Shown here: positions 1,188-50,400 of the stretch, piece by piece
How positions within the stretch are numbered: the stretch's first letter is position 1
Layout: each line of letters begins with the position of its first letter
DNA from: Candidatus Taylorbacteria bacterium RIFCSPHIGHO2_01_FULL_51_15
GTDB lineage: Bacteria > Patescibacteriota > Minisyncoccia > Phycocordibacterales > UBA10002
Assembly: GCA_001820935.1 (NCBI GenBank)
Contig: MHRI01000030.1
Location: 2,734-66,733, forward strand
Reading direction: 5' to 3'
DNA length: 64,000 bases
Translations under genes and position numbers: made by a program
Notes under the pieces: generated by a model
The model's database searches: none
Told to the model about the DNA's origin: nothing
What the model saw: only the letters and a program-made list of their open reading frames with translations

Positions 1188-2600
1188 ATGGTGGATTTCT
1201 CAAAAACAAATACAGTGCATTTTGTAGGCGTAGGGGGTATAGGGACGTCCGCTATCGCGCGGATGTTTGTGCTGGAAGGGAAGCGAGTGAGCGGCTCCGA
1301 CATGGCGGAGGGCGAAGTGACCAAAGCACTACAAGAGGTTGGAGTTGTGGTATACGTTGGAGATGCGAAGAGTAACCTTCCGGCAGATTGCGATCTCGTG
1401 ATTTACACGATTGCCATCCCGAAAGACCATCCTGAATTAGTTGAAGCGAAAAAGCGAAGGATTCCAATACTTTCGTACCCCGAAGCGCTTGGCATCATTT
1501 CGAAAGAGAAATACACTATTGCCATCACCGGCACACACGGCAAGACCACGACGACCGCGATGGTCGCGAAGATTTTGATTGATGCTGGGATGGATCCGAC
1601 GGTGATTGTGGGGAGTTTTTTGTTGGATGTTCCACCCCTCCTTTCTAAGGAGGGGCAGGGGGCGGTAACTACCCCCTCGGAGTCTCCCCCTTGGAAAGGG
1701 GGAGAGGCAAGACGGACTAACTTTGTCGCGGGTAAAAGCAAGTACTTGGTAGTTGAGGGCTGTGAATACTGCCGGTCATTCCTCAATCTGCATCCGAATA
1801 TTTTAGTTATTACGAACATAGATGCCGACCACCTCGACTATTATAAAGATATGGAAGACATCGTCTCCGCGTTCGTCGAACTCTCCCGTAAACTCCCCAA
1901 CGACGGATACCTCATTCTTGATTCACACGCGCCAAATGTGCAGGCGGTCGTGAAGCAATCACACACACAAAATGGCGACTTCGCCGCTCTCAAGTTACCC
2001 GAAGGGTTCAAACTGCACATCCCGGGGGCGCACAATCTCCTCAACGCGAAGGCGGCACTGGCTGTCGCAAAGGTACTCGACATTCCGGATAAACAAGCGC
2101 TCCGGTCACTTTCCGCATTCCGAGGGACATGGCGGCGGTTCGAATATCGAGGTAAGGCGAAGAACGGGGCGCTCGTGTACGATGACTATGGACATCACCC
2201 GACCGAGATCGAAGCGACACTACGAGGAACCCGGGAGTTATTCCCTCTAAATAAAGTGAGCGCTTCTGGGGGGTTGTCGCCTAAAATCGTCGTTGTATTC
2301 CAACCCCACCTTTATTCGCGCACGAAGCAGCATCTCCAAGGATTCGGCGTAGCGTTCAAAGGGGCGACGAACGTGATACTCCTTCCTATCTATCCTGCGA
2401 GGGAAGAAGATCCTGGCGGCATCAATTCACAGATGGTAGTGGATGAAGTGAAAAAAAACGGCAAAAACGCGCATCTCGTTAAGACTTTCGACGAGGCGGC
2501 AAAACTTGCCGTAGAGCTCTGCGGAGCCGGGGATGTAATCGTTACCCTTGGAGCGGGGGAGACAAACAAAGTTGCGGACATACTCGTTAGTAATAAGTAG
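1188..2600 (+). CDS. murC: UDP-N-acetylmuramate--L-alanine ligase MurC, carrying a ~29-aa in-frame insertion
   Basis: 'HFVGVGGIGTSAIARMF' N-terminal Rossmann motif. Mur ligase P-loop 'ITGTHGKTTTTAM'. 'NIDADHLDYY' motif. The 1041 ORF extension is rejected because the internal ATG at 1188 matches the MurC N-terminus. Confidence 0.9.
   Translation: MVDFSKTNTVHFVGVGGIGTSAIARMFVLEGKRVSGSDMAEGEVTKALQEVGVVVYVGDAKSNLPADCDLVIYTIAIPKDHPELVEAKKRRIPILSYPEALGIISKEKYTIAITGTHGKTTTTAMVAKILIDAGMDPTVIVGSFLLDVPPLLSKEGQGAVTTPSESPPWKGGEARRTNFVAGKSKYLVVEGCEYCRSFLNLHPNILVITNIDADHLDYYKDMEDIVSAFVELSRKLPNDGYLILDSHAPNVQAVVKQSHTQNGDFAALKLPEGFKLHIPGAHNLLNAKAALAVAKVLDIPDKQALRSLSAFRGTWRRFEYRGKAKNGALVYDDYGHHPTEIEATLRGTRELFPLNKVSASGGLSPKIVVVFQPHLYSRTKQHLQGFGVAFKGATNVILLPIYPAREEDPGGINSQMVVDEVKKNGKNAHLVKTFDEAAKLAVELCGAGDVIVTLGAGETNKVADILVSNK
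1632..1712. repeat. GC-rich palindromic element inserted in frame into murC
   Basis: Hairpins 'CCCCTCC-TTTCTAA-GGAGGGG' (1635-1655) and 'CTCCCCC-TTGGAAA-GGGGGAG' (1684-1704). They encode the extra loop 'PPLLSKEGQGAVTTPSESPPWKGGEARRT', which is absent from canonical MurC between the 'TVIVG' and 'YLVVEGCEY' segments. Confidence 0.7.
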
Positions 2601-2620
2601 CTAGTAGTTAGTAGAGAGAC

Positions 2621-3295
2621 ATGGCCACACTTTACATCGTCGGAACACCGATAGGGAACCTGGAAGACGTGACGCTAAGAGCGTTACGGATCTTAAAAGA
2701 AGCTGACGTTATCTTGTGTGAAGATAAGCGTGTCACTAAGCGACTTCTGGATAAATACGAAATAGCTGGGAGGGAGCTCGCGACTTACAATGAACAGCAA
2801 AGTGGAGTGGCGTCAGGAAAGATCATCGGCTGGCTGGAAGAAGGGAAGAACGTCGCGCTCGTCACGGACGCGGGCACGCCGGGAATTTCCGACCCGGGCT
2901 CAATGCTGGTCCAAAAAGTCCGTGAGGTACTACCGGACGCGAAAATAGAATCGGTGCCGGGGCCGAGCGCACTCACCGGTGCGCTCTCCATCGCAGGCGT
3001 GCCGGTGCATGACTTCGTATTCTTAGGATTCCTCCCGCACAAAAAAGGGAGGGAAACACTCTTTAAAGAGATCGCAATGTCAGAGCGTACGGTCGTGTTC
3101 TATGAATCTCCCCATCGGATATTGAAAACGCTTGAATCACTTGAGAAATTCGCGCCCGCAAAGAATATCACGATTGCCCGGGAGCTTACGAAAATACACG
3201 AAGAGGTAAAAAGCGGCTCCGCCGAGGAGCTTCTTAAGTTTTTCAAAGAAAATCCGGACAAAGTCAGAGGCGAATTCGTGGTGATTGTTTTCTAG
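2621..3295 (+). CDS. rsmI: 16S rRNA (cytidine1402-2'-O)-methyltransferase RsmI
   Basis: 'LYIVGTPIGNLEDVTLRALRILKEADVILCEDKR' is the tetrapyrrole-methylase-fold RsmI signature. Length 224 aa. Confidence 0.85.
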   Translation: MATLYIVGTPIGNLEDVTLRALRILKEADVILCEDKRVTKRLLDKYEIAGRELATYNEQQSGVASGKIIGWLEEGKNVALVTDAGTPGISDPGSMLVQKVREVLPDAKIESVPGPSALTGALSIAGVPVHDFVFLGFLPHKKGRETLFKEIAMSERTVVFYESPHRILKTLESLEKFAPAKNITIARELTKIHEEVKSGSAEELLKFFKENPDKVRGEFVVIVF

Positions 3296-3312
3296 TCGAA
3301 TTTACAAAAGAG

Positions 3313-3368
3313 AAATCCCTCCTTCGATAAGAATCGAAGTGCTCCCTTTGGGAAAGGGAGAATTAAGA
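3313..3368. repeat. Intergenic copy of the palindromic element family, placed as a bidirectional terminator between convergent genes
   Basis: 'AAATCCCTCC-CTTCGATAAGAATCGAAG-TGCTCCCTTTGGGAAAGGGAGAATTAAGA'. Nearly identical to the in-frame copy at 14468-14524. Two hairpins of 7 and 8 bp. Overlaps the stop codon of the minus-strand gene. Confidence 0.7.
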
Positions 3369-3716
3369 CAAAAGTGTGTCGATCTTTGCGGCCAGAATAA
3401 AATCATTTTCGGAAAGGCCGTCTATGGCGTGAGTAAATGACGTAATCTCCGCGTAGCCCCAGCCAAAAGTGATATCCGGGTGGTGACTCTCCGATTCGGC
3501 GAGGGATCCCACTTTGGTCACGAAAACGAGCGCTTCGGCGAAATTTTTGAAAGTGAATCGGCGCTTCAAATGATGATAGTCCACGATCTCCCAGTGCTCA
3601 ACTTGTTTATAAAGCTCCTCTATTTCGTTGGCCATGAGGTGAGCCCCGCTCGCCCCGGGACCGACTTCACAAGGCACGCATTTTTTGTTGGATAGATTTT
3701 GCATGTGATTCTTCAT
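3363..3716 (-). CDS. Pterin-4-alpha-carbinolamine dehydratase (PCD/DCoH family)
   Basis: 'ESHHPDITFGWGYAEI' matches the PCD signature [E-x-H-H-P-x5-6-(W/Y)]. 117 aa. Confidence 0.8.
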   Translation of the reverse strand: MKNHMQNLSNKKCVPCEVGPGASGAHLMANEIEELYKQVEHWEIVDYHHLKRRFTFKNFAEALVFVTKVGSLAESESHHPDITFGWGYAEITSFTHAIDGLSENDFILAAKIDTLLS

Positions 3717-3740
3717 GACAGTCTAATTAGTGAAACAGTA

Positions 3741-3776
3741 TAGCAAAAAAGCGCGCCATCCGATATGACGCGCTTT
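3741..3776 (-). terminator. Rho-independent terminator for minus-strand gene 3792..4301
   Basis: Hairpin AGCGCG-n13-CGCGCT followed on the minus strand by a T-run (plus-strand 'aaaaaa'). Confidence 0.5.
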
Positions 3777-3791
3777 GCGTTAAAGGAGAAT

Positions 3792-4301
3792 CTACAATTT
3801 CTCCAGAAGATCTGAGACTTCTTCTACGGAATCGAGAAGTATAGCCTCGAGTGAAAGCGGTGGGGTGTCTGTTGCTCCCGATTCAAGATTTTCATGTTTG
3901 CTTCCCAGGTAGAGCCTCCGTAATTTTCGGTGCGTGGCTTCAATAAGTTCCGGCTCCGATAGGTAGTACTGCTCTGGATGGAAGCGTCTTACCCATCGTG
4001 CATGCCAGACTGATGTGGGGTCAGTGTCGATTTTTACGAGCTCAATCCATTTGCATTTACATCTTGCAAACGTGAGTTTAATTGGACGTCGTATAAACCA
4101 ACGCCATTTACCCTCGGGACTTTTGTATGAGATTACCTCATCGAGTGGAAGCAATATCTTGTGGATCCGAGTAACGAACGTGCAGCCACATTCCTTTCTT
4201 CGGCAACGACGTGAAATGCGTTTTGATAGGCGGTAGGAGAACCAAAGGAGCGCAAAGAAGCAACACGCTGAAAGCGCACCGAGGAAGAAATCAGTCTTCA
4301 T
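3792..4301 (-). CDS. Hypothetical basic, Cys-rich protein with an N-terminal membrane anchor
   Basis: 169-aa ORF with an N-terminal hydrophobic segment 'FLGALSACCFFALLWF'. No recognisable domain. Confidence 0.4.
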   Translation of the reverse strand: MKTDFFLGALSACCFFALLWFSYRLSKRISRRCRRKECGCTFVTRIHKILLPLDEVISYKSPEGKWRWFIRRPIKLTFARCKCKWIELVKIDTDPTSVWHARWVRRFHPEQYYLSEPELIEATHRKLRRLYLGSKHENLESGATDTPPLSLEAILLDSVEEVSDLLEKL

Positions 4302-4388
4302 ATCTGGGCATAGTATACATAAAAAAGAACAAAATAGTTATGGTCTATTTTTTAGCATGTTTAGTGGAGCTGTACTATACTAGAGGGC

Positions 4389-4619
4389 ATGCGTAAATAT
4401 AGCGTGCACGTTTGGCTTGTGGTGTTTCTCCTCCTTCTCCCATTCTTAGGGATTCCTACAGGTTGGAAGAAGACACTTGCGATACTGACGCTTCTTTTTA
4501 TCGCCGTTCGCGTACTTCTCTCGCACTCTCGGCATTACCTTGAGAAAGATGAGATGTTTTCTGAAGCAGAGCACAAGGTCGAAGGTGCTTCCCAAGAACA
4601 GTCGATCTCCCATGACTAG
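4389..4619 (+). CDS. Hypothetical small membrane protein
   Basis: 76 aa with two hydrophobic helices. No homology recognised. Confidence 0.3.
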   Translation: MRKYSVHVWLVVFLLLLPFLGIPTGWKKTLAILTLLFIAVRVLLSHSRHYLEKDEMFSEAEHKVEGASQEQSISHD

Positions 4620-4644
4620 ATTTTCTTCGTTGCGCTAGAACATC

Positions 4645-5946
4645 ATGCCCGCCTTTCCACGTCGGCGAAAGACTCCTTACATTGGTGTCTTCAGAAAAAC
4701 ACCTTTCCTTTGCGCGATCATCGCCATCTTCTCGGTCGGACTCTATTTCGGGTTACCACTCGTGCTGAAGAAGAGTTATCAGCCTTTACTCCCCGCCGCC
4801 GCGGGCGAAGCGGTTCTCGAAGCGGCAATGACCCCCGCCGTCATCCACCTCAAAACGCCGATGCCGCAAAAGGCCATTTATATGACAAGTTGTGTCGTTG
4901 GCACACCCTCTTTTCGTCATGATCTCGTGAGCCTTGTCGAAGAAACGGAAATAAACAGCCTTGTGATTGATATCAAAGATTACTCGGGCATGCTCTCATT
5001 CACCCCAAAGGGGGAAGCACTAAAGGAGTTTATATCGACGAGGTGTATGGCTCCGGACATGCAAGAGTTTATACAAACGCTCCACGAAAAAGGGATTTAT
5101 GTCATTGGACGTATCACCGTGTTTCAAGATCCATTTCTCGCGAAACGGCGGCCTGATCTTGCCGTAAAGAAGGCGAGTAATGGCACGACGTGGCAGGATT
5201 ATAAAGGCATTAGCTTTACCGATCCCGGTGCAGAGGAGGTGTGGAAGCATATTGTCGACATCTCAAAGGAAGCTTACGCGATCGGCTTTGACGAACTCAA
5301 TTTTGATTACATCCGGTTTCCTTCTGACGGGCCTATGTCGGACATTGCCTTCCCCTGGAGCGAGAGTCGCAAAAAGGCTGACGTGCTGGAAGATTTCTTC
5401 GCCTACCTTTCAAAGGAGCTTCGGCCCATGGGGATCGTACTCTCCGCTGACCTATTCGGCATGACCACGACGAACACTGACGATCTCAACATCGGCCAGG
5501 TGCTTGAGAGAGCCGCGCCGCACTTCGACTATATCGCGCCGATGGTCTACCCTTCGCATTACCCTCCGAGGTTTAATGGCTGGGCGAATCCGAACGAGTA
5601 CCCCTATGATGTCGTTAAGTTCTCCATGGGAAGCGCCGTGAAGCGTTTTCTCGCCACCTCCACGCCTGTCGCGCTTCGCGGGGTAGAGCCGATTGCTTCT
5701 ACGACGCTCCCGCAAAGCTCTGTCGCGGGGCAAGCTCCGCTACTCTATCCTAAAGAATCATGGAATCCGGAGAAGCTCCGGCCCTGGCTTCAGGATTTTG
5801 ACTATGGCGGCAACTACGATATCGCGGAAGTTAAAGCCCAGATTACGGCGGTGTATGACGCGGGACTCACAAGTTGGATGCTCTGGGCTCCGTCGAATCG
5901 ATACACAAAGGGGGCCTTGGAAGGCGAGCAAGTATTGACGGATTAG
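4645..5946 (+). CDS. Membrane-anchored putative glycoside-hydrolase-like TIM-barrel protein (GHL/DUF4015-type)
   Basis: N-terminal TM helix, then 'AIYMTSCVVGTPSFRHDLVSLVEETEINSLVIDIKDY' and 'GFDELNFDYIRFP' segments typical of the 'putative glycoside hydrolase' family found in polysaccharide loci. Confidence 0.5.
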   Translation: MPAFPRRRKTPYIGVFRKTPFLCAIIAIFSVGLYFGLPLVLKKSYQPLLPAAAGEAVLEAAMTPAVIHLKTPMPQKAIYMTSCVVGTPSFRHDLVSLVEETEINSLVIDIKDYSGMLSFTPKGEALKEFISTRCMAPDMQEFIQTLHEKGIYVIGRITVFQDPFLAKRRPDLAVKKASNGTTWQDYKGISFTDPGAEEVWKHIVDISKEAYAIGFDELNFDYIRFPSDGPMSDIAFPWSESRKKADVLEDFFAYLSKELRPMGIVLSADLFGMTTTNTDDLNIGQVLERAAPHFDYIAPMVYPSHYPPRFNGWANPNEYPYDVVKFSMGSAVKRFLATSTPVALRGVEPIASTTLPQSSVAGQAPLLYPKESWNPEKLRPWLQDFDYGGNYDIAEVKAQITAVYDAGLTSWMLWAPSNRYTKGALEGEQVLTD

Positions 5947-6090
5947 ACTTCCTGTACTGTATAGATTTGCGCACATTGAGGGATTTTGGGCCATAGTGTA
6001 GCCTTGCTATAGTGCTCGCAACACCTCGGTTCGCTGATCTGCCAGCGGTCCGAGAAGGGATCACCCACAACCAAACCTCATACTAAACGT

Positions 6091-6459
6091 ATGCAAAAAC
6101 CCACCGGTGACGCAGAAGTGGATGCGTCGGTTGGACAGGCGCCTCTCTTTGAGGCGGTCGAGGAGTACAAGCGCGGACGGCAATTGGAGCCAGGGGATCG
6201 GCTGCGCCTACTCAAGGTAATCAACCCGACGCTAGGCCTCGAGCGTGCTGTGCTCGCGGTCAAGGCGTTTAGCCAGGGTACATTCACGAAGGCCGTGGTC
6301 GAAGCATGGCTCTTCTTCGGGAATCACTGGTTCCAAACACTACGAAGTTGGTTTCTCATGCAGGTCCGCCGAATTCGTCTTTCGACGGCAGATCTGCTTT
6401 TGCCGGAGCGCAAGAGCCACTTCATCGTCCTCACGCGCCATCACGTGTTTTGCGCGTAG
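6091..6459 (+). CDS. Hypothetical protein (orphan gene in a GC-rich segment)
   Basis: 122-aa ORF followed by its own terminator at 6510-6543. No homology recognised. Confidence 0.35.
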   Translation: MQKPTGDAEVDASVGQAPLFEAVEEYKRGRQLEPGDRLRLLKVINPTLGLERAVLAVKAFSQGTFTKAVVEAWLFFGNHWFQTLRSWFLMQVRRIRLSTADLLLPERKSHFIVLTRHHVFCA

Positions 6460-6509
6460 GTGGAATCAGCAGTTTAGAGTTCAGTCGCGCTAGGAAATGC
6501 GACCCACAG

Positions 6510-6543
6510 CCTCTCTCGTCGTTTCGCGAGAGAGGTTCTTTTA
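6510..6543 (+). terminator. Rho-independent terminator
   Basis: 'CCTCTCTCG-tcgtttcg-CGAGAGAGG' 9-bp stem followed by 'TTCTTTTA'. Confidence 0.55.
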
Positions 6544-6719
6544 TGCACGTTCTCTAGACACACATTCTTTTCTATAGTAAGCTACGAATCCAGTAGCGTC
6601 TTTACTCCGGTCTTCATGTGCGCGCCGACAGCGTTTGCCGGCTACCAAAGCACGGGAGTCTGGGGACGCGAAGCTCTTGCGGGTATCCAATGTATGGACC
6701 CCGCGAACAATAAAAAGTT

Positions 6720-7034
6720 ATGGCAGCACGACTGGATCGTTTGGAACGTTTGTTTACACAATCCGACACAGACGCCGAGGCCAACAATTACTTAACGTGG
6801 GACCATCTGCGTGAGGCGGTGAAAAAACCGAGCCGCGAGCAAATTTTAGCTCTGCCGCTACACGAACGGACGAATGTGCCCATCGCCTTCGTTGAGGCGG
6901 CGAAGATTGACTATGTCCCCGGGCCACCTGGCTTGCCCCAATTTGTCGGCTCTGCGGACGAGGTCGCGCAGTATCGAGCAGGTTTGGCTGACCTCAGTGT
7001 GGGCACGGGGAATCGTAGCCGATGGAGGTCCTAA
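6720..7034 (+). CDS. Hypothetical protein
   Basis: 104-aa ORF ending 30 nt before a strong terminator. No homology recognised. Confidence 0.4.
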   Translation: MAARLDRLERLFTQSDTDAEANNYLTWDHLREAVKKPSREQILALPLHERTNVPIAFVEAAKIDYVPGPPGLPQFVGSADEVAQYRAGLADLSVGTGNRSRWRS

Positions 7035-7062
7035 TCTCGCCATTCTCTCGTCGGTATTTTCG

Positions 7063-7098
7063 GGTGCGGCTAAGAATTGGCCGCACCTTTTCATTTTT
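7063..7098 (+). terminator. Rho-independent terminator
   Basis: 'GGTGCGGC-taagaattg-GCCGCACC' followed by 'TTTTCATTTTT'. Confidence 0.65.
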
Positions 7099-7128
7099 CT
7101 GCCCACAAAAGGTATACTATTGGAGTAT

Positions 7129-9072: not shown

Positions 9073-9090
9073 CCGCTAGCTCGCTTTCCC

Positions 9091-10659
9091 GTGACATTTC
9101 GCGCTCGGACAAGTTTACCTCCACACTTTTTGTCCCAGAGTATGCCCATTAGGCGGTGCCCCCGTCTTCTCTGTTCACGTGCCAGTTTACCTGCGTGCGT
9201 TGCGCCAATCTTTAATTTTTTGTTTCTTGTCGGGATCTTACTTTCAATTCCGCATCCGACGCTACTCCGCGCTGAGGTACAGAAATTTGTTTTTGTATCG
9301 CCTCCCCAGACTGTTCCCCCCGGCGCCGTATCGGAGAAGATAACGTTGCAGTCGCAGGACGGAGCCGGAAATGAGTTCAAGGTCTCCGGCACGACGTGCG
9401 TGGCGCTCTCTTCCACGCCTTCCGGAGGAGAGTTTTCTTCGAGTGACGCCAATTGGTCTTTAGTGTCGGTGCTTACCATGGCCAAGAATTCCGCGAACCG
9501 GAATTTCCATTACAAAAATCCCGCGGCCGGTACCTACACGATCAAGGCAACTGTAGCTCTAAGGCCGGAAGGCGAAGAACGCTCTTGCCCAAGTTGGCCG
9601 CTCGCGGAATGGTCCTCCGGCTTCGAAGCGACACAGAGCATCACGATCGGCGGAACTGTAGAGAATGCGTCGAGTACTCCACCATCTGGAAATGCGGCGG
9701 AAGAGGGGGGCAGTGAAGCGGCTCCTCCTTCGCCACCGGCCACGCAAGGCAGCAACACGGTGAGTTACAAACCGCAGATCTCTGTGAGCGCTCTTGTGCC
9801 CTCTAGGGGGATCGTTGGTGCCCCCGTGCTGTTTGACGCGACCGCGATCGGGCTGAAGAAAGAACCTCTCATGAGTGCCCGCTACACATGGAGCTTTGGC
9901 GATGGCGGCTTTGGCGAGGGAAAGAAGATAGTGCACACCTATCACTATCCAGCCGTCTATGTGGTTATGGTTGATGCCTCCTCCGGAGAGTGGAGCGCGT
10001 CAGACCGAAAAGAAATTGTGATTGCACAGCCGGAACTTCGTATCTCGACCGTAAAGGAAGGAGGCGACGGATTCATCGAACTCCGGAATGGCGGCGCGGA
10101 TGAGGTTGATCTCTCGAATTGGCAACTTCGAAGCGGCACGCGCACCTTCTCTATTCCGGAAGGAACACGCATCGGAGCGCAAAAGGCCGTTCCTTTCCCA
10201 GCCCTGATTACGAACATCTCGGCCGATTCCCGAAGTACCACGCTTCTTTATCCGAACGGAGATACAGTTACAAAGTACGAAGAAAGGCCGGCGGCGCCCC
10301 CACCGGCACCTGTCAAAAAGGCGGAGGAGCAAGCGACGCAGACGGGAGCGGCAAAAAAAGAAACGTTGCGTAAAGAGACGATACCTCCTTCGCCACCGGT
10401 TCCACCCGCTGATGAAGACGCTCGTTCTCTTCCGCCCGAGCTTTCTCCTACAGCTTCGAGCACACCCCTTTCACAGGTACGTGAGCTTATCGGAGCCGCA
10501 GGAGCAAGCCAAACCGTTGGCGCAATGCCGTGGCTGCTCGCGCTAGGACTTTTCCTCGCGGTCTCGATCGGCGGGTACATCATGATGCTTCGGCCGAAGA
10601 AAGAAGAAAGCGCGGCAGAGAAACTGCAGAAAGAAGCGGCGGAATTTGAAATTGAATAG
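9091..10659 (+). CDS. Cell-surface protein with a PKD domain and lamin-tail domain (LTD), Pro/Ala-rich stalk and C-terminal TM anchor
   Basis: PKD-like 'YTWSFGDGGFGEGKKIVHTYHYPAVYVVMV'. LTD-like 'ELRISTVKEGGDGFIELRNGGADEVDLSNWQLRSG'. C-terminal 'PWLLALGLFLAVSIGGYIMML'. The true start may be ATG 9142. Confidence 0.6.
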   Translation: MTFRARTSLPPHFLSQSMPIRRCPRLLCSRASLPACVAPIFNFLFLVGILLSIPHPTLLRAEVQKFVFVSPPQTVPPGAVSEKITLQSQDGAGNEFKVSGTTCVALSSTPSGGEFSSSDANWSLVSVLTMAKNSANRNFHYKNPAAGTYTIKATVALRPEGEERSCPSWPLAEWSSGFEATQSITIGGTVENASSTPPSGNAAEEGGSEAAPPSPPATQGSNTVSYKPQISVSALVPSRGIVGAPVLFDATAIGLKKEPLMSARYTWSFGDGGFGEGKKIVHTYHYPAVYVVMVDASSGEWSASDRKEIVIAQPELRISTVKEGGDGFIELRNGGADEVDLSNWQLRSGTRTFSIPEGTRIGAQKAVPFPALITNISADSRSTTLLYPNGDTVTKYEERPAAPPPAPVKKAEEQATQTGAAKKETLRKETIPPSPPVPPADEDARSLPPELSPTASSTPLSQVRELIGAAGASQTVGAMPWLLALGLFLAVSIGGYIMMLRPKKEESAAEKLQKEAAEFEIE

Positions 10660-10755
10660 TAATTCATAGTCAGGAGTTTTTAAAACGCATCAAGCAGAGG
10701 TAAAAAAGATCCTGACTTTATAAGACCTTACGGACTTTATAGACTTTACAAACTT

Positions 10756-11979
10756 ATGAAGGTTTTAATTTTCAGCACCGCCTATCTGCCGTTTGTTGGC
10801 GGAGCGGAGCTTGCGATCAAAGAAATCACCGACCGCCTTGGTTCTCCTTTCCCCCTCTTTAGAGGGGGGATTCTGGGGGGTGCTTCCTTCGACCTCATCA
10901 CACTTAATCTTGATGGAAAACAAAAACCGGAGGAGCGAATCGGGAATGTGAACGTTATCCGCCTATCGTGCTCCAAACTCTTCTTTCCTATTCTTGCGCG
11001 CGAACGCGCCACAAAACTTCACTCCCGGAGATCATATACTCACGTCTGGTCAATCATGGCGTCCTATGGAGGTTTTGCGGGTCTCTTTTTCAAACGGCGG
11101 TTTCGGGGTGTCCCCTTTATTTTAACCCTTCAAGAAGGCGACTCTCTTTCTCATATTTACAGGCGAGCATTTCTTGCGTGGCCTCTTTTCAGACAGATCT
11201 TTACACGCGCCGATCGCATTACCGCGATTTCAAACTATTTGGCCGATTGGGCGAGAAAAATGGGAGCGAAGGGCGACATTCGTATCATATCGAATGGAGT
11301 GAATATAAAGAATTTCGAATTTCGAATTTCGAATATCGAAAAAGAAGAAATAAGAAAGAAATTAGGAATACAAAAGGAAGATAAAGTTGTGATTACGACA
11401 TCCAGACTCGTGGAGAAAAACGGAGTCGGCCACCTTATTGAATCTCTGCGGTATCTCCCGGAAAATGTGAAATTACTCATCCTCGGAACAGGCTCTCTTG
11501 AACCTGATTTAAAGCTAAAAGCTAAAAGCTATCAGCTAGAAGCTCGCGTGAAATTTGTCGGTTTCGTGCCGCACAATGAACTTCCACCCTTTCTTCATGC
11601 TGCCGATGTCTTCGTCCGACCGTCCCGTTCGGAAGGAATGGGGAGTTCATTTATAGAAGCTATGGCCGCCGGTCTTCCTGTCGTTGCGACACCGGTCGGC
11701 GGCATTCCGGACTTTCTCGCCGCGCCCCTTCCGGGCTCCGAAGAGGAAACGCATCTATTCTCTAATTCTCACGAATTAGAGAATAGATGGGGAGGGAATA
11801 TGACGGGGGTGTTTGTGAAAGTAGGGGATCCGAGAGATATCGCGGAAAAGATTAAATGCTTGTTGTCGAATGACGAACTCCGAAATAGGATCATCGCAAA
11901 CGCCTCGAAGATGGTGAAAGAAAAGTATGAGTGGGATGGGATTGTAGAGAGGATGAAAGAGGTATTTGACAAAATATAG
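10756..11979 (+). CDS. Glycosyltransferase family 4, with an in-frame palindromic insertion and a heptamer repeat
   Basis: 'MKVLIFSTAYLPFVGGAELAIKEITDRL' GT4 N-terminus. C-terminal 'RPSRSEGMGSSFIEAMAAGLPVVATPVGGIPDFL' EX7E-type motif. Confidence 0.8.
   Translation: MKVLIFSTAYLPFVGGAELAIKEITDRLGSPFPLFRGGILGGASFDLITLNLDGKQKPEERIGNVNVIRLSCSKLFFPILARERATKLHSRRSYTHVWSIMASYGGFAGLFFKRRFRGVPFILTLQEGDSLSHIYRRAFLAWPLFRQIFTRADRITAISNYLADWARKMGAKGDIRIISNGVNIKNFEFRISNIEKEEIRKKLGIQKEDKVVITTSRLVEKNGVGHLIESLRYLPENVKLLILGTGSLEPDLKLKAKSYQLEARVKFVGFVPHNELPPFLHAADVFVRPSRSEGMGSSFIEAMAAGLPVVATPVGGIPDFLAAPLPGSEEETHLFSNSHELENRWGGNMTGVFVKVGDPRDIAEKIKCLLSNDELRNRIIANASKMVKEKYEWDGIVERMKEVFDKI
10840..10885. repeat. GC-rich palindromic element inserted in frame into the GT4 gene
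   Basis: 'CCCCCTC-TTTA-GAGGGGG' hairpin (10851-10869). Encodes the extra 'GSPFPLFRGGILGGAS' between conserved GT4 N-terminal segments. Confidence 0.6.
11310..11337. repeat. Heptanucleotide tandem repeat (GAATTTC)x3 plus GAATATC inside the GT4 ORF
   Basis: Direct reading of 'gaatttcgaatttcgaatttcgaatatc'. Encodes 'NFEFRISNIE' in the inter-domain linker. Confidence 0.8.
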
Positions 11980-12086
11980 ACAGACTGTAGCATAGCACTA
12001 TGCAGAAGCAGAACGTGATGAGTGTTGTACCGCCCACGGCCGCCCTTTGATCGGGTTGGTCCTTTCTTCGTAACTCTACACTTAGA

Positions 12087-12118
12087 AAACCGCCCCGATC
12101 ACGGGGGCGGTTTTATGT
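12087..12118 (+). terminator. Rho-independent terminator
   Basis: 'AAAACCGCCCC-gatcac-GGGGGCGGTTTTAT'. Confidence 0.75.
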
Positions 12119-12245
12119 TGCAAAGCAACATAAAACAATCAAAAGTTCGTGCTTGCTTTGTTGTCGGTTTGAGAAGAAATTCGCAAATCGACTTCAGAAC
12201 GAGTGTTCTGAATCCGTTCTTTTTGGCTCTTTTCCAACTGAATAT

Positions 12246-13010
12246 ATGTCTACACCACGAACCGTCGTCATCAAAGTTGGCACCGACGTCCTCAAGGACC
12301 TCTTCGCGTTCAGTCTCATCGCTCGCCAGATCGCAGAGCTCAAACGCACCGGGGTCGGTGCCATACTTGTTTCTTCAGGTGGCGTCATCGCGGGAAGTGA
12401 TTACCTCACTTTTATTGGAGGTGATCCCTATGCTTACCAGAAACGCGTGCTCGCGAGCATCGGCGCTCGGTCATTACTCAATCGTTGGGGGGAGGCCTTT
12501 GCCCTTGATCGTCTTGCCGTAGCCCAGTTTTATATCACGTACGGAAACCTGCGCTTTCGCGGGGAGAGGGAAAGCATCCGCTCTGCCTTACGCAAACTCG
12601 CATTCGATACTCTCGTTGTCCCGCTTGTGAATGAAAACGACATCGTCTCGGGAGTGGAGATCAGTAAGATGGCTCAGGGACTTGGCGACAATGATCGGCT
12701 CGCTCGCATTATCGCCAATCTTGTGCGAGCAACAGGCATTGCGTTCGTTACCGTGCGGGGTGGAGTCTATACTGCGAATCCCGATTCCGACGCTTCCGCA
12801 ACACTCCTTCCGTACATAGATGCGAGTCGGCAGTTTCGCGGAGGACGCCACAATGCGGGCACTTCTCGAAATGGCGTAGGAGGGATGGGGTCGAAAGTGC
12901 GCCAAGCATCCATTTGCGCTCGAAAGGGGATGGAAGCGGGAATTATTGGCCCTTCCGATATTATCCAGTTCTTTGATGGCAGGGGTGTGGGAACGAAGGT
13001 CGCCGTCTGA
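12246..13010 (+). CDS. Amino-acid-kinase-fold protein (glutamate-5-kinase/UMP-kinase-like)
   Basis: 'TVVIKVGTDVL' N-terminal nucleotide-binding motif. 'LVVPLVNENDIVS' segment. Start taken at ATG 12246, after the terminator and intergenic region. Confidence 0.5.
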   Translation: MSTPRTVVIKVGTDVLKDLFAFSLIARQIAELKRTGVGAILVSSGGVIAGSDYLTFIGGDPYAYQKRVLASIGARSLLNRWGEAFALDRLAVAQFYITYGNLRFRGERESIRSALRKLAFDTLVVPLVNENDIVSGVEISKMAQGLGDNDRLARIIANLVRATGIAFVTVRGGVYTANPDSDASATLLPYIDASRQFRGGRHNAGTSRNGVGGMGSKVRQASICARKGMEAGIIGPSDIIQFFDGRGVGTKVAV

Positions 13011-13024
13011 TTCTTTCGACTCTG

Positions 13025-13055
13025 CGGGCCGTCCTAACGGACGGCCCTTTTATTT
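13025..13055 (+). terminator. Rho-independent terminator
   Basis: 'GGGCCGTCC-taac-GGACGGCCC' followed by 'TTTTATTTT'. Confidence 0.75.
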
Positions 13056-13171
13056 TAGACACAACTTGTCTCAAATCTATTCATATGAACAGATTTGAGA
13101 CATGACATGGTCAGTATGATGGTCCGTATGGCTGCTAACAGACCGATACTTTTCTCTGTTATCATAGGACT

Positions 13172-14206
13172 ATGCGGATTTTGATAGCAACAGGCATTTA
13201 TCCACCTGACATTGGTGGACCGGCGCAATACGCGCTCGGGGTGGAAGAGGTGTGGCAAAAAGCGGGTCACGAGGTGAAGGTGCTTAGCTTTAGATTCGAG
13301 AGAAGACTTCCGACCGGGATTCGACATGTGTATTATTTTCTTCGCGTCCTTTTCTCGCTTCCCGGAGTGGATTTTGTGTTTTCGCCCGACACCTTCAGCG
13401 CCGCTCTTCCGGCTCTTCTCGCGAGTACACTTTTGGGAAAGAAACTCATCATTCGTACCGGCGGAGATTTCCTGTGGGAATGGTATGTGGAGCGGACGGG
13501 AGATCTCGTTCTCCTTAGAGATTTTTATTCGACACGACTCTTGAGGTTAAATAGAAAAGAGCGAATTATTTTTTCCTTGCTCCGATTTCTGTTTCGTCAC
13601 GCCGACGCTATCATCTTCAGCACTGCTTGGCAGAGAGATATTTTCACAAAACCGTACGGTCTCAACGCGGCGCGCTGTCACATTGTTGAAAATTACTACG
13701 GCCCAGAGGAACGAAAAGTGTATTCCAATGTTCCACAACACATTGGAATACACAAAAAAATCTTTGTCGGCGGGACGCGCCCGCTGAAGTGGAAAAATAT
13801 CCCTCGTGTTGAAGAAGCATTCAAAACGCTACAAAGTAAGGGGTTACCGGTTTCCCTGGCGCTCCAGATCGGAAGTCGAGGGCAGTTTCTACTCGATATC
13901 CAGTCGAGCTATGCCGTCATCATCGCTTCACTTGGAGATATTTCTCCGAACACTATTCTTGAGGCGATTCAGTTTGGAAAGCCTTTTATCCTCACTTTAG
14001 AAACCGGACTCTACCCGAAGCTCAAAGACATCGGCGTGTGGGTTGACCCAGAAGATGTGGGTGATATAGCCGCCAAGGTTGCGTGGCTTGCGGATGATCA
14101 AAACTATGAAGCGCAATGTAAAAAAATAGCGGCGTTTGCGTTTACGCACAGCTGGGAAGATATTGCCAATGAGATCTTAACTATCCATGCGAATCTTAAA
14201 TCTTAG
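13172..14206 (+). CDS. Glycosyltransferase family 4
   Basis: 'MRILIATGIYPPDIGGPAQYA' GT4 N-terminus. 344 aa. Confidence 0.75.
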   Translation: MRILIATGIYPPDIGGPAQYALGVEEVWQKAGHEVKVLSFRFERRLPTGIRHVYYFLRVLFSLPGVDFVFSPDTFSAALPALLASTLLGKKLIIRTGGDFLWEWYVERTGDLVLLRDFYSTRLLRLNRKERIIFSLLRFLFRHADAIIFSTAWQRDIFTKPYGLNAARCHIVENYYGPEERKVYSNVPQHIGIHKKIFVGGTRPLKWKNIPRVEEAFKTLQSKGLPVSLALQIGSRGQFLLDIQSSYAVIIASLGDISPNTILEAIQFGKPFILTLETGLYPKLKDIGVWVDPEDVGDIAAKVAWLADDQNYEAQCKKIAAFAFTHSWEDIANEILTIHANLKS

Positions 14207-15362
14207 TCTGGACAGGGAAATAATTGAAAAGGGTTCCGCCGTGCGACAGCGGCTCATTTTGCTTGCGGAGAAAGTTGGGGAAATAGTGGTGTTTGTTCCG
14301 GGAGAACGAGACGAGAAAGAAGAAGTCTCGACCCATCTTACCGTGTATTCGTTTGCCGGACCGAGAGTGGCGCAACTCTGGAAGATGTGGAAGAAGGGAA
14401 AGGAGCCCCTGTCTGGAAGTTCCTCCTTTCCTAAAGGAGGCGGCGAGTTTTCGAGCCGGAGGATTTTAAATCCCTCCTCCGACTCGGAAGTCGGAGTGCT
14501 CCCTTTAGGAAAGGGAGAATTAAGAGTATTCGAATTGATCACCGTGCAAGATCCGCATTTTCTCGGACTCTTTGGCGTCCTCCTCGCAAAGAAATATCGC
14601 GTGCCGCTTGAAGTACAAGTGCATGGGTTTGAAAAGTCTTCGGGTCTTCGGAAAAGACTTGCGAGGTTTGTATTGGAAAGGGCCGATACAGTCCGCGCTG
14701 TCAGCAATCGACTGAAAGAGCATCTTCACTCCATATTCCATATTCCATATTCCATACTCTATACTTTGCCAGTGTACGCGCAAACCGCCCCTCCACAAAA
14801 AGTAATCAAACGGAAAACGGTCCCGTATCCGTTCACCTTTCTTACCGTCGGGAGACTTGTTCCCGTAAAAAATATTGACCTACAGATTCGGGCGTTCGCG
14901 CGCTTGGTAAAGGAGGTACCGCACATCCGGCTTAGGATTGTAGGAGAAGGACCTCTCGCCGACAGTCTAAAGTCCAAGGTCGAAAGTCTAACGTTGGAGA
15001 AAAGCATCATCTTTGAGGGGTATAGGCGTGATCTCCGAAGATATTATGAAGAAGCGGATGCCTTTCTTCTCACGTCCGACTGCGAAGGGTGGGGGCGGGT
15101 CGTGCTTGAAGCCGCCGCGTATCGCCTCCCCATCATTATGACCGATGTCGGACTCGCGCGGGAAGTCATCAAGAATGAAGAAAGCGGATTCATCATTCCC
15201 GTCGGCGATGAGCGAGAGCTCATGCTCGCGATGAAGGAACTTCTTGATAAGCCACAGCTTCGGGAACGGCTTGGCGAGGGAGCCTTTCGAGCGTTCAAAG
15301 CGCTCCCAAGTAGAGAAGCATATATAGAGAAACAAGTTGAGGAGTGGAGGAGTTTGATATAA
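14187..15362 (+). CDS. Glycosyltransferase family 4, with a ~39-aa in-frame palindromic insertion and a heptamer repeat
   Basis: C-terminal 'LTSDCEGWGRVVLEAAAYRLPIIMTDVGLAREVI' GT4 motif. Overlaps the upstream gene by 20 nt. Confidence 0.8.
   Translation: MRILNLSLDREIIEKGSAVRQRLILLAEKVGEIVVFVPGERDEKEEVSTHLTVYSFAGPRVAQLWKMWKKGKEPLSGSSSFPKGGGEFSSRRILNPSSDSEVGVLPLGKGELRVFELITVQDPHFLGLFGVLLAKKYRVPLEVQVHGFEKSSGLRKRLARFVLERADTVRAVSNRLKEHLHSIFHIPYSILYTLPVYAQTAPPQKVIKRKTVPYPFTFLTVGRLVPVKNIDLQIRAFARLVKEVPHIRLRIVGEGPLADSLKSKVESLTLEKSIIFEGYRRDLRRYYEEADAFLLTSDCEGWGRVVLEAAAYRLPIIMTDVGLAREVIKNEESGFIIPVGDERELMLAMKELLDKPQLRERLGEGAFRAFKALPSREAYIEKQVEEWRSLI
14420..14525. repeat. GC-rich multi-hairpin palindromic element inserted in frame into the GT4 gene
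   Basis: Hairpins at 14422-14440 (CCTCCTTT/AAAGGAGG), 14477-14496 (CTCCGAC/GTCGGAG) and 14499-14517 (CTCCCTTT/AAAGGGAG). The 3' half is near-identical to the intergenic copy at 3313-3368. Confidence 0.75.
14732..14759. repeat. Heptanucleotide tandem repeat (CATATTC)x3 plus CATACTC inside the GT4 ORF
   Basis: Direct reading of 'catattccatattccatattccatactc'. Encodes 'HSIFHIPYSILY' in the inter-domain linker. Confidence 0.8.
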
Positions 15363-15363
15363 G

Positions 15364-16335
15364 ATGAACGGCATTATGAAAAGAAAGCACGGGGGAATTA
15401 AATCCCCTTTCGCCACTCCCACCACCCCGCCTGGAAGACTCGGCACCCCTCCTCAGGCAGGAGGGGAGACTGACAAACCCCTTATCGGATTCATTGGGCA
15501 GGGGTTCATCGGGAAGCATTACGCCGATGACTTTGAGCGGCGCGGCTACAATGTAGTTCGGTACGCCCGCGGCCGGAAGTTTGCAGAGAATAAAAACAAA
15601 CTCAAGCTGTGCGATATTGTTTTTATTGCGGTTCCCACGCCCTCAACCCCAAAAGGGTTTGACTACTCCGTCGTGAAGTCAGTGCTTCCGCTTGTCGGAA
15701 AGGGAAAGATTGCCGTGATTAAATCCACAATTCTCCCCGGTACAACGGAAGCTCTGCAGAAATTCTATCCCGACATATATCTATTCCATTCACCTGAATT
15801 TCTGCGCGAAGCAACGGCCGCACATGATGCGGCACATCCCGACCGTAATATCATCGGCATGACTAAGGGGACGCCGGAGTATGCAGAGCGGGCGGAGCGT
15901 GTGCTTTCTGTGCTTCCGAAAGCGCCGTTTGAGCGCATTATGCACGTGCGAGATGCGGAGCTTGTGAAGTATGGAGGAAATTGTTTTTTGTACACAAAAG
16001 TGCTTTTTTCCAATCTTTTTTATGATGTTGCGAAACGGTGTGGACATGACTGGGAAGCAGTCAAGGAAGCAGTCGCCGCAGATCCACGTATCGGACCCTC
16101 TCATATGGAGCCGCTGCATACAAGTGGGCACGGGGGGAAGCCTGGGCGGGGCGCGGGAGGGCACTGCTTTATCAAGGATTTTGCCGCTTTCACGCGCCTC
16201 TACGCAAAAGTAGCGCATGATGCATCCGGACTTAGTCTACTTCGAGCACTTGAATCCCATAACAACAAACTCCTTTTGGGGAGTGGCAAAGACCTCGAAC
16301 TTCTTCTGGGAGTGTATGGCAAGAGAAGTCTGTAA
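15364..16335 (+). CDS. Nucleotide-sugar dehydrogenase family protein (UDP-glucose/GDP-mannose dehydrogenase-like, short form) with an in-frame N-terminal palindromic insertion
   Basis: Rossmann 'IGFIGQGFIGKHYA'. Catalytic-Cys context 'GGHCFIKD' (compare 'GGSCFPKD'). Only ~323 aa, so it appears to lack most of the C-terminal UDP-binding domain. Confidence 0.55.
   Translation: MNGIMKRKHGGIKSPFATPTTPPGRLGTPPQAGGETDKPLIGFIGQGFIGKHYADDFERRGYNVVRYARGRKFAENKNKLKLCDIVFIAVPTPSTPKGFDYSVVKSVLPLVGKGKIAVIKSTILPGTTEALQKFYPDIYLFHSPEFLREATAAHDAAHPDRNIIGMTKGTPEYAERAERVLSVLPKAPFERIMHVRDAELVKYGGNCFLYTKVLFSNLFYDVAKRCGHDWEAVKEAVAADPRIGPSHMEPLHTSGHGGKPGRGAGGHCFIKDFAAFTRLYAKVAHDASGLSLLRALESHNNKLLLGSGKDLELLLGVYGKRSL
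15388..15470. repeat. GC-rich palindromic element inserted in frame near the 5' end of the dehydrogenase-like gene
   Basis: 'GGGGA-attaaa-TCCCC' and 'CCCCTCC-TCAGGCA-GGAGGGG' (15446-15466). Encodes 'KSPFATPTTPPGRLGTPPQAGGETD', which precedes the Rossmann motif. Confidence 0.6.
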
Positions 16336-48648: not shown

Positions 48649-49386
48649 ATGAAAGAAGATGCATATATCTACGATAAAGGAGACAGGGAATACACGGTCG
48701 CAGTGACGAAACGCTACGCCGAAAAGAAATATGAGCTCGACAAAATGCTCGAGAAGCTCATCGCACCTATCATCAAAAGTAAGGAGCTTCGCATTCTCGA
48801 TGCCGGGTGCGGTATTGGTCACCTCATGGCAATTCTCAAGGAACAGAGTCCCGCATCAATGTTCACGGGGGTAGATCAAACCGCATTCATTATTAATGAA
48901 GCTAAGAAGTTGTACGGGAAGGAAACCGGTTTCCATTTTGAGCTCGGAGATATCGAAGATCTCCCCCAAAGGTATAGAGCGGCGTTTGATGTCACCATTT
49001 CACGGGCAGTCCTCTCATGGCTCCCGTATTACGAAGCACATCTCCAAGCGCTTATTGCGGTCACGAAAAAGCACCTCTTCATCGCTTCGCTGTTTTACGA
49101 TGGCGATATCGATTTCATCACACAGGTTCGTGAATTCAAATTGGAAGCAGGCAAAAAAGAGTTCAGCGCCTACCAAAATGTCTACAGTCTTCCGCGATTT
49201 ACTGACTTCCTTAAGAAAAATGGAGCAAAAAAAGTATCGGTGCATCCATTCGAAATAGGTATCGATATCCCGAGGGGGGACGAGAATCTTATGGGGACGT
49301 ATACCGAGAAGACAATTGATGGTCGCCACCTCCAGATAAGCGGCGCAATCCTTATGAGCTGGAAATGGATTCATATTGAACTCTAA
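48649..49386 (+). CDS. Class I SAM-dependent methyltransferase
   Basis: 'ILDAGCGIGHLMAIL' motif I. The ORF-track N-terminal extension (48235) is rejected because it overlaps the divergent minus-strand gene. Confidence 0.6.
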   Translation: MKEDAYIYDKGDREYTVAVTKRYAEKKYELDKMLEKLIAPIIKSKELRILDAGCGIGHLMAILKEQSPASMFTGVDQTAFIINEAKKLYGKETGFHFELGDIEDLPQRYRAAFDVTISRAVLSWLPYYEAHLQALIAVTKKHLFIASLFYDGDIDFITQVREFKLEAGKKEFSAYQNVYSLPRFTDFLKKNGAKKVSVHPFEIGIDIPRGDENLMGTYTEKTIDGRHLQISGAILMSWKWIHIEL

Positions 49387-49399
49387 ATTATTCTAATTT

Positions 49400-49424
49400 C
49401 TAATCGCCCTAATTATTCTAAGGA
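49400..49424. repeat. Partial copy (left TIR only) of the AT-rich TIR element family
   Basis: 'CTAATCGCCCTAATTATTCTAAGGA', compared with 'CTAATTGCCCTAATTATTCTAAGGA' at 50290-50314. Confidence 0.6.
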
Positions 49425-49502: not shown

Positions 49503-50288
49503 TTGGTTATTCATTTTATGAAGAACATCCGCATTATCCCAACCCTCCATATCAAAGGATCGAACGTGGTAAAGCCGGTACACACCGAAGCCCTTCGTGT
49601 TGTGGGCCATCCAAAGGAGCTTGCCCTCCGTTACTACCGCGAGGGAGCTGATGAACTTATCTATCTCGATATTGTCGCGAGCCTGTACCAGCGCAATTTT
49701 GATTTTGAGTTACTCAAATCCGTTTCCGAAGAAATCTTCATCCCGATTACGGTTGGAGGAGGCATCCGCTCGCTCTCCGATATCAAAAATGCTCTGCGTG
49801 TCGGAGCCGACAAAGTCGCCATCAATACGTATGCCGTGCATCACCCCGAGTTCTTGAAAGCCGCCGCAGAAGAGTTCGGCTCGCAGTGTATCGTGCTCTA
49901 CATTGAGGCCAAGGAAAAAGGGGACGGGAGGTGGGAGGTCTATACAGATGGCGGGCGGGAGAGCACCGGTGTTGATGCCGTGGAATGGGCGAAAAGGACA
50001 ATAGACCTTGGTGTAGGCGAAATCCTCCTCACTTCCATTGATCGCGATGGAACACGGAAGGGATATGACCTCGAGCTTACCTCTGCCATCGCTTCAACGT
50101 CTCCCATTCCCGTCATAGCCCATGGAGGCGCGGGGAATGCCGCTCACCTGGAAGAGATTATCAAGAAGGGAAAGGCGGACGCCGTGGGAGTGTCATCCAT
50201 TTTTCACTACGCGGAGACGGATATTGGAGCCGTGAAGAAAAATTTGAGTGGACGGGAAATCAATGTGAGAGCAAATTATTCTAATTAG
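49503..50288 (+). CDS. hisF: Imidazole-glycerol-phosphate synthase cyclase subunit HisF homolog (glycan-locus paralog, WbuZ-like)
   Basis: '[15 protein letters not shown]' and 'DELIYLDI' segments. '[10 protein letters not shown]' and '[11 protein letters not shown]' are HisF signatures. Confidence 0.8.
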
Positions 50289-50400
50289 TCTAATTGCCCT
50301 AATTATTCTAAGGAATATCAAAAAACCAATTTCCAAGTTAAACATTCGCAGTTAGGATTTCATTAGGTCAATTAGAATAATTAGGGTACTTAGGTCAATT
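50289..50400. mobile_element. MITE-like 112-bp element with terminal inverted repeats (no cargo)
   Basis: Left 'TCTAATTGCCCTAATTATTCTAAGGA'. Right 'GTCAATTAGAATAATTAGGGTAC', which is the reverse complement of CCCTAATTATTCTAATTGAC. Fills the hisF-hisH spacer. Confidence 0.6.

Follow-up and report, generated by a model that had tools for sequence, protein, structure and literature searches.

A stretch of 64,000 nucleotides from Candidatus Taylorbacteria bacterium RIFCSPHIGHO2_01_FULL_51_15 (assembly GCA_001820935.1, contig MHRI01000030.1, positions 2,734 to 66,733; this whole stretch is called the window below, and coordinates are counted from its first letter) carries short, GC-rich hairpin elements, several of which lie in frame within cell-wall and glycan genes. 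We consider it quite probable that these are non-autonomous palindromic mobile elements of Patescibacteria, which spread in a hairpin-dependent manner, are tolerated in frame in the surface loops of proteins, are translated there and then decay. They belong to a superfamily that is widespread in Parcubacteria/Paceibacteria lineages related to Taylorbacteria.

An initial annotation of the window had listed five such stretches, and all five exist: 1632-1712 in murC (1188..2600), 3313-3368 between genes, 10840-10885 in a GT4 glycosyltransferase gene (10756..11979), 14420-14525 in a second GT4 gene (14187..15362) and 15388-15470 in a UDP-glucose-dehydrogenase-like (UGDH-like) gene (15364..16335). 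The count was too low, as murC hosts a second element at 2247..2282 and the first GT4 gene another at 11752..11789. The annotation had treated the five as copies of one family, and what stands of this is that they are dispersed palindromic repeats; they do not align as a single family and are better described as several module families built on one design. The common design can be captured by a pyrimidine/purine (Y/R) hairpin, defined here as a perfect hairpin with an all-pyrimidine 5' arm, an all-purine 3' arm, a stem of at least 7 and a loop of 3-9. The window contains eight of these, against 0.47 on average and never more than 2 in 40 first-order Markov shuffles (about 17-fold), and seven of the eight fall within the five listed loci: CCCCTCCTT/AAGGAGGGG and TCTCCCCCTT/AAGGGGGAGA in 1632-1712, CTCCCTTT/AAAGGGAG both in 3313-3368 and at 14499-14517, CCCCCTC/GAGGGGG at 10851, CCTCCTTT/AAAGGAGG at 14422 and CCCCTCCT/AGGAGGGG at 15446. 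The GC-rich ones all lie between positions 1 and 16000 of the window, among the cell-wall and glycan genes; the stretch from 16000 to 64000 has a single Y/R hairpin, which is AT-rich, at 22779.

One of the module families, termed family 1 here, accounts for the intergenic copy and for the copy in the second GT4 gene. Its half-unit consists, in order, of AAATCCCTCC, a variable covarying hairpin and TGCTCCCTTTnnnAAAGGGAGAA; in aligned copies the 3' part reads (G)TGCTCCCTTT-nnn-AAAGGGAGAA, usually followed by TAA(G) or TTAA(G). The variable hairpin has stems of 4-12 bp that differ in both sequence and length, with loops that are often AAGA or GAAGAC. Very frequently, another half-unit that has diverged further is found immediately upstream, on the opposite strand (TTCCTCCTTT-nnn-AAAGGAGG, hairpin, GGAGGATTT), and the two inverted half-units together form a doublet of about 105 nucleotides (nt), the termini of which, TTCCTCCTTTcctAAAGGAGG and CTCCCTTTaggAAAGGGAGAA, are near reverse complements and so constitute terminal inverted repeats. 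The hairpin CCTCCTTT-nnn-AAAGGAGG is similar to a duplex of Shine-Dalgarno and anti-Shine-Dalgarno sequences, a likeness that is probably compositional.

A covariance model built on the 3313-type half-unit (R1) matches the window at 3313-3366 (69.3 bits, E 7e-18), at 14468-14523 (70.7 bits) and, on the minus strand, at 14416-14466 (28.7 bits), which makes the 3313 copy a singlet and 14416-14525 an inverted doublet. Over 720 kb of related loci the same model finds 195 units, many of them as adjacent pairs on opposite strands. In 1632-1712, 10840-10885 and 15388-15470 it finds generic short hairpins only and no family-1 match. A weak match at 626-678 (E 0.06), inside a DUF4272 gene, starts with AAATCCCTCC but is devoid of hairpins. 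It may be a half-unit in an advanced state of decay or a chance match, and it is not counted as a copy.

The singlet at 3313..3368 (plus strand) is composed of AAATCCCTCC, the variable hairpin, GTGCTCCCTTTGGGAAAGGGAGAA and TTAAGA. Two convergent genes enclose it, rsmI (2621..3295, plus strand) on one side and a pterin-4a dehydratase gene (3363..3716, minus strand) on the other; the stop codon of the dehydratase gene overlaps with the 3' end of the element. The sequence is identical across 9 independent assemblies, so it is not an assembly artefact, and there is an orthologous copy in locus L042. The full doublet at 14416..14525 (plus strand; half-units 14416-14466 minus and 14468-14523 plus) is in frame, encodes SSFPKGGGEFSSRRILNPSSDSEVGVLPLGKGELR and folds as one long hairpin with a free energy of -55.6 kcal/mol (z -4.3; none of 200 shuffles folds as well). 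The near-identity of 3313-3368 and 14468-14525 that had been noted is confirmed: their common 3' part contains the 30-mer GTGCTCCCTTTRGGAAAGGGAGAATTAAGA, which occurs twice in the window against 0 expected.

The first hairpins of these two copies differ by two compensatory changes (CTTCGAT/ATCGAAG against CTCCGAC/GTCGGAG), and the difference, already seen in the initial annotation, is real and part of a covariation that extends across the family. In a comparison of 51 distinct half-units, each of the seven base pairs that make up the variable helix shows changes in both partners; double-change cells number 83 against 38 in shuffles, with none of 500 shuffles reaching as high a value. Pairing in the variable helix is 87% and drops to about 50-60% when the partners are slid. 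That the second helix does not vary is a product of the search, which required it. Selection on secondary structure, which the annotation had read from the pair of copies, thus holds across the family and does not hold at each locus, where orthologous genic copies decay: the copy at the first murC site in ortholog P0003 has its hairpins 1 and 3 broken, and the window's own element at 2247-2282 is degraded. This decay of resident genic copies places the structural constraint on the propagating lineage of elements and not on every resident copy; presumably, structure is selected across the family for propagation.

The elements at 1632, 10840 and 15388 are separate modules, for each of which other genomes contain relatives, and this is why the supposed family is better seen as a group of module families. 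For the murC element at 1632-1712, the 3' 41 nt have matches of 92% identity in L034 and L101, and its 5' hairpin also occurs in L051, L107, L040 and L016. The exact hairpin at 10851 is found again in at least five loci, including L099, L090, L124, L051 and L021. The element in the UGDH-like gene shares 88% identity over 52 nt with L040, including compensatory changes in its small hairpin, and the core of this module, called E-type here, recurs nearly identically in another gene (the GT4 ortholog P0134) and in L040.

All four genic copies of the original list lie within uninterrupted open reading frames (ORFs) and keep the frame, as had been claimed. The same holds for 2247-2282, for 11752-11789 and for every orthologous insert that was examined: none contains a stop codon, and the insert lengths are multiples of three (81-84, 36, 36 and 105 nt, and 48 for a nested insertion). 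The further claim that the inserts in murC, both GT4 genes and the UGDH-like gene are extra loops relative to homologs is likewise supported. An ancestral origin of these loops had been named as an alternative; the genic copies are missing from many close orthologs, and thus they are not ancestral.

The murC gene illustrates this most fully. Its first insert, at 1632..1712 (plus strand), is a composite of three GC-rich hairpins (1635-1655, 1658-1678 and 1683-1705) and encodes VPPLLSKEGQGAVTTPSESPPWKGGEA. Solved MurC structures have no counterpart of the query residues at about 148-177, in agreement with the suggestion that insertion-free homologs would reveal the insert. The site is a hot spot of insertion: among 44 orthologs (59-82% identical), 17 are empty at this site, where the turn from GSF to TNFV is the 8-residue LFDKDGKR, and the other 27 carry 5-42 extra residues of about ten insert types. 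At the DNA level, four orthologs were compared. P0019 is empty, with the sequence GSFLFDADGKRTNFV; P0003 has the same element as the window, in its broken form; P0007 has the window's element with a nested 48-nt hairpin-rich insertion in the loop of the first hairpin; and P0005 has an unrelated family-1-like doublet in the opposite orientation. The second insert, a decayed 36-nt hairpin element at 2247..2282 (plus strand) that the initial annotation had missed, encodes LNKVSASGGLSP, and its window copy folds no better than shuffles. Its intact form, CCCCCTTAATAAAGGGGG..GGGGGGTTGTCCCC, is present in P0003 and P0005; P0019 and P0007 are empty (FP|xQKIVVVF), and eight of the 44 orthologs have an insert there.

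In the AlphaFold model of MurC (mean pLDDT 83), residues 148-174 and 356-362 are the only segments below 50, and they correspond to the two inserts. Both are predicted as coil, the first connecting the two strands of a hairpin and the second following a helix. The mapping onto structure that had been proposed thus places them, in the prediction, in low-confidence coil between regular elements, and the inserts are most likely surface loops compatible with the fold. At four or more positions elsewhere in the protein, other MurC orthologs have short inserts rich in Pro, Ser and Gly, such as NPSTGLRA following FxLE, ERMGIFPQSAAGRCPSS, QGAPLSDKGAPCSD and PARPDDASGRSGG; this suggests that use is made of many permissive loops.

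In the first GT4 gene, a short GC-rich hairpin module at 10846..10881 (plus strand; CCCCCTC TTTA GAGGGGG followed by a G-run, with the hairpin at 10851-10868) lies in frame near the N-terminus and adds about 12 residues (PFPLFRGGILGG). It folds no better than shuffles. No residues are present at this site in 27 of 30 aligned representatives, and P0367 and P0400 carry other inserts of the KGG type. The same gene contains, at 11752..11789 (plus strand), an AT-rich hairpin with a perfect 17-bp stem (CATCTATTCTCTAATTC tcac GAATTAGAGAATAGATG), which was not part of the earlier list. It is in frame inside an insert of about 24 residues (..EETHLFSNSHELENRWGG..) and belongs to a different sequence family; among 29 other aligned representatives only P0362 has the insert, the rest reading GGIPDFLxDG-ETG. 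This element suggests that in-frame hairpin insertions include a second class, which is AT-rich. A further hairpin, with a 14-bp stem (GTGTATTCCAATGT ... ACATTGGAATACAC), is found at 13718-13753 inside the ORF 13172..14206, where it encodes ..KVYSNVPQHIGIHK.. and may be another in-frame hairpin insertion.

The site of the doublet in the second GT4 gene varies too. It is empty in P0137 and many other orthologs; in P0127, P0146 and P0154 the 3' half-unit stands alone and has the window's variable hairpin; P0126 has the full doublet, P0122 the doublet with extra inserted residues, and P0132 and P0134 have an E-type module instead. Within the same gene, tandem heptamers at 14733-14760 (CATATTC three times, then CATACTC) encode HSIFHIPYSILY, and orthologs vary there. 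In the UGDH-like gene, the E-type module at 15388..15470 (plus strand) has the core CTCCCACCACCCCGCC-loop-GGCACCCCTCCTCAGGCAGGAGGGGA at about 15416-15467 and a small hairpin upstream at 15392-15407; it encodes KSPFATPTTPPGRLGTPPQAGGE in frame, within an N-terminal extension that varies. In most orthologs the N-terminus is short and rich in Lys and Arg, distant ones start at the Rossmann motif MKIGFIGQG, and P0268 has the same peptide as the window.

Family 1 is not confined to this genome. A scan of a genome collection for exact matches to its 23-base core, TGCTCCCTTTNNNAAAGGGAGAA, returned at least 117 loci in at least 27 assemblies, and among the matches listed nearly all are Patescibacteria, Parcubacteria, Taylorbacteria, Nomurabacteria, Gracilibacteria or 'Saccharibacteria' by label. 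Copies are numerous within single genomes, with at least 20 core loci in GW2011_GWA2_49_9. The initial annotation had made its proposal depend on whether further copies exist, and the many found in related genomes answer that question. Complete or partial half-units were also seen at four loci from bins labelled SAR324, Elusimicrobiota (two contigs) and Syntrophaceae (L030, L074, L115 and L112); these could reflect horizontal spread beyond Patescibacteria or mis-binned contigs. A scan of viral contigs for the core gave 0 matches, and thus no sign of a phage vector.

Other genes are affected in these genomes as well. Family-1 units lie in an AlaRS-like gene, at the same site in L012 and L069, and in a tRNA-binding-domain-like gene in L070 and L082, both genes being identified by eye with no domain search. 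In a RuvC-like ORF, again recognised by its motifs by eye, L036 and L121 (GW2011_GWA2_49_9) have an insert derived from family 1 (..PSSDSEVGVLPLL..SAPFKKGRIR..) just before DDEYDAIAV. The family has even entered ribosomal RNA: in Taylorbacteria CH-Oct18-75 (CALRAJ010000003.1), a family-1 doublet at 6431-6539 of locus L089 lies in an insertion of roughly 180 nt in the 23S rRNA, located in a hairpin loop of domain I at position 583/584 of the large-subunit (LSU) model, which we take to be the helix-25 region.

These observations can be drawn together in a model in which the elements would propagate at the DNA level, in dependence on their hairpins and on the fixed motifs that flank them; spread of this kind would explain why the stems covary between motifs that stay fixed. 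The combination of fixed motifs and a covarying hairpin points to a hairpin-recognising enzyme, and by analogy with RAYT and the IS200/IS605 enzymes suggests one acting on single-stranded DNA. Copies would land anywhere, and most of those that persist would be intergenic. A minority would persist in genes, where the frame is kept, the element is free of stops and the site is a permissive surface loop; such copies would be translated into disordered loops in which Pro/Ser/Leu/Phe precede Lys/Gly/Glu/Arg, and would then decay neutrally. Permissive loops, or copies already in place, would become hot spots with successive and nested insertions, and variable rRNA loops would be colonised too. The hot spots may arise from selection for permissive loops or from integration into pre-existing copies. 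The data fit both, and the nested insertion in P0007 suggests the latter.

Several points weigh against this model. The ORFs within 400 bp of copies (218, clustered) belong to housekeeping clusters only, with no transposase or recurrent family among them, and a regular-expression search for HUH/Y1 motifs in 2,338 ORFs from 8-kb pieces per genome, which is a crude screen, found none; with no transposase beside the copies, mobility is read from patterns of presence and absence only. A clear target-site duplication was not seen, the flank at the second murC site, CCC(C), being ambiguous and the host sequence at the other sites too diverged. Translation of the inserts is deduced from the continuity of the ORFs. 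Tolerance in genes is supported by the open frames of the half-units, on average 3.73 of six against 2.77 for shuffles, the Y-arm/R-arm design somewhat lowering the number of stop codons; this stop-free bias is modest, however, and not significant for the single copies in the window. Tolerance is also supported by the exact-core copies, which are genic in 21 of 124 cases (17%), compared with 58% of random positions in the same loci, so elements are depleted from genes and yet far from excluded; genic here means a frame that stays open over 50 or more codons on each side, and by this definition a copy that breaks its frame counts as intergenic. Finally, the conservation of the core over very divergent genomes could reflect a host function rather than selfish spread.

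The last point leads to the view that the units are functional host signals, such as DNA-uptake sequences or binding sites for a host protein, selected at many loci and tolerated in genes. Uptake sequences do occur as inverted pairs after genes and also inside ORFs, most copies here lie after genes, no transposase was found near them, and AAATCCCTCC and TGCTCCCTTT..AAAGGGAGAA are invariant in at least 27 assemblies whose housekeeping proteins are about 50-60% identical, an invariance partly imposed by the exact-match search. However, uptake sequences have a density of about one per kb, whereas the 64-kb window has 3 half-units, and uptake signals do not include a variable, covarying hairpin flanked by fixed motifs. 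At one and the same site an element can be present in one close relative and absent from another, and genic copies decay, which argues against a function at each locus; we therefore regard a host signal as unlikely. A role on the RNA level, with the elements acting as transcript-stabilising 3' hairpins, attenuators or terminators and the genic copies as by-products, would fit the stable hairpins, the many copies between a stop codon and the next gene and, equally well, the covariation. The initial annotation had indeed proposed the 3313-3368 copy as a bidirectional terminator, but this is not supported: there is no T tract on either strand, and the copy is not called by a terminator scan of the window that does call canonical terminators at 13026, 7062, 6508 and 3776. 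Several intergenic copies in other genomes are succeeded by a canonical terminator distinct from the unit (L020, L058, L039 and L078), units occur in both orientations relative to the neighbouring genes, and Rfam 15 gives no match in the window (at E<=1 or at gathering thresholds) and none over the elements in 10 related loci. Donation of a Shine-Dalgarno sequence by the purine arm was also considered and rejected, a start lying within 40 nt in 28% of copies against 27% of random positions in a control that is weak, as it counts internal in-frame starts. On this evidence an RNA-level role seems rather improbable.

It is also conceivable that the genic copies are not translated at all, being removed from the mRNA, bypassed by the ribosome in the manner of gene 60 or the mitochondrial 'byp' elements, or excised like rRNA intervening sequences. 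The same family does sit in a variable loop of 23S rRNA, excision of rRNA intervening sequences is known in other bacteria, and the hairpins are strong enough to impede ribosomes. Yet removal or bypass needs no keeping of the frame, and the inserts in the window and the orthologous ones examined are all in frame, free of stops and multiples of three in length, even where decayed copies have lost their fold; we give non-translation very little credence. Less plausible still is that the inserts are ordinary lineage-specific expansions of low-complexity loops by replication slippage, with a resemblance that is compositional. The elements at 10846-10881 and 2247-2282 would suit this explanation, as they are short, of low complexity and fold no better than shuffles, but identical sequences of 50-105 nt with the same order of motifs recur between genes, within genes unrelated to one another and from one genome to another, and Y/R hairpins are about 17-fold above expectation. 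Slippage is contradicted for the copies at 3313, 14416, 15388 and 1632, and is conceivable only for that at 10846.

With mobile palindromic elements thus remaining the preferred explanation, the closest parallel in behaviour is to the Rickettsia palindromic elements (RPEs), short palindromic repeats of several families that occur between genes and, with unusual frequency, in frame in unrelated housekeeping genes, with translational fusions that the protein fold is believed to accommodate (PMC10969869). The comparison, already made in the initial annotation, is apt: here too there are many copies, absent from orthologs, which lie in frame in unrelated genes (murC, two GT4 genes and a UGDH-like gene), and the inserts are modelled as disordered loops. 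The two systems, compared by behaviour and description, differ in other respects. The hosts are Patescibacteria and not Alphaproteobacteria, the units measure about 36-55 nt and the doublet about 105 nt as opposed to about 150 bp for RPEs, the elements are modular, with hairpins of a Y-arm and an R-arm and with singlets and inverted doublets that contain a covarying hairpin, and about 17% of exact-core copies are genic, compared with nearly half for some RPE families.

The arrangement of family 1, in turn, recalls REPINs, which are inverted doublets of REP sequences that form a hairpin, are non-autonomous and are mobilised by RAYT, with singlets as remnants (PMC3337134). The half-unit singlet at 3313-3368 and the inverted doublet that folds as one long hairpin have their counterparts there. 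The persistence reported for vertically inherited REPIN-RAYT systems (bioRxiv 10.1101/2022.05.22.493013) is matched by that of family 1 across a deep lineage. REPs, however, are extragenic by definition, whereas four of the five copies listed for the window lie within genes and another copy lies in rRNA; a RAYT-like gene near copies was not found (218 neighbouring ORFs; a crude motif screen in 8-kb pieces); and the unit ends lack the GTAG/CGTC tag that marks the 5' end in large REP superfamilies (PMC3733652). [quoted passage not shown] Unlike MITEs, the present elements are much shorter and consist of reusable hairpin modules, and neither a parental insertion sequence nor a clear target-site duplication was found. 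The L089 insertion in a variable hairpin loop of domain I is similar to the 23S intervening sequences of helix 25, and differs from them in belonging to a dispersed family that is also found in proteins and spacers.

Apart from the GC-rich hairpins and unrelated to them, the window has periodic AT-rich arrays of 9 nt (CTAATTnnn, or on the complement TTAGnnnAA) at 49380-49421, 50270-50400, 53460-53957 and 55252-55385, that is, in four places within 6 kb, in both orientations and apparently flanking genes.

No account of such elements, whether from Patescibacteria or from the candidate phyla radiation, came up in literature searches, and one may exist elsewhere. The phenomenon itself is established in Rickettsia; what sets the present case apart is its occurrence in an unrelated phylum, the modular hairpins, the REPIN-like doublets, the wide conservation and the colonisation of rRNA. 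It would represent a second, independent case of the RPE phenomenon, one that reaches essential genes (murC and, as judged by eye, apparently those for AlaRS and RuvC) as well as 23S rRNA. There is also a practical warning for annotation, as inserts of this kind lower homology scores and split alignments; many GT4 matches broke at residue 322, adjoining the 11752 insert.

A bolder interpretation, which we put forward tentatively and hold to be less than likely, is that of an ancient repeat system extending over a deep branch of Patescibacteria, possibly class-wide, with a dedicated enzyme that has gone unrecognised and with elements that survive in minimal genomes dense in genes largely through their translatability. 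If this were true, the enzyme would not be a recognisable RAYT or IS200 protein, or the core would also serve as a host signal, a DNA-uptake sequence for instance; the hot spots in murC and the GT4 gene would result from self-targeted, nested integration and not from selection alone; and the elements would be a recurrent source of new surface loops in essential proteins and of expansion segments in rRNA.

The genomes of Patescibacteria are tiny and densely packed with genes, and mobile DNA is usually said to be scarce in them. Elements that are short, modular and tolerated in frame would explain part of the length variation and of the low-complexity loops in the proteins of these bacteria, and their presence or absence at individual sites would give a marker for population genetics at the level of strains.

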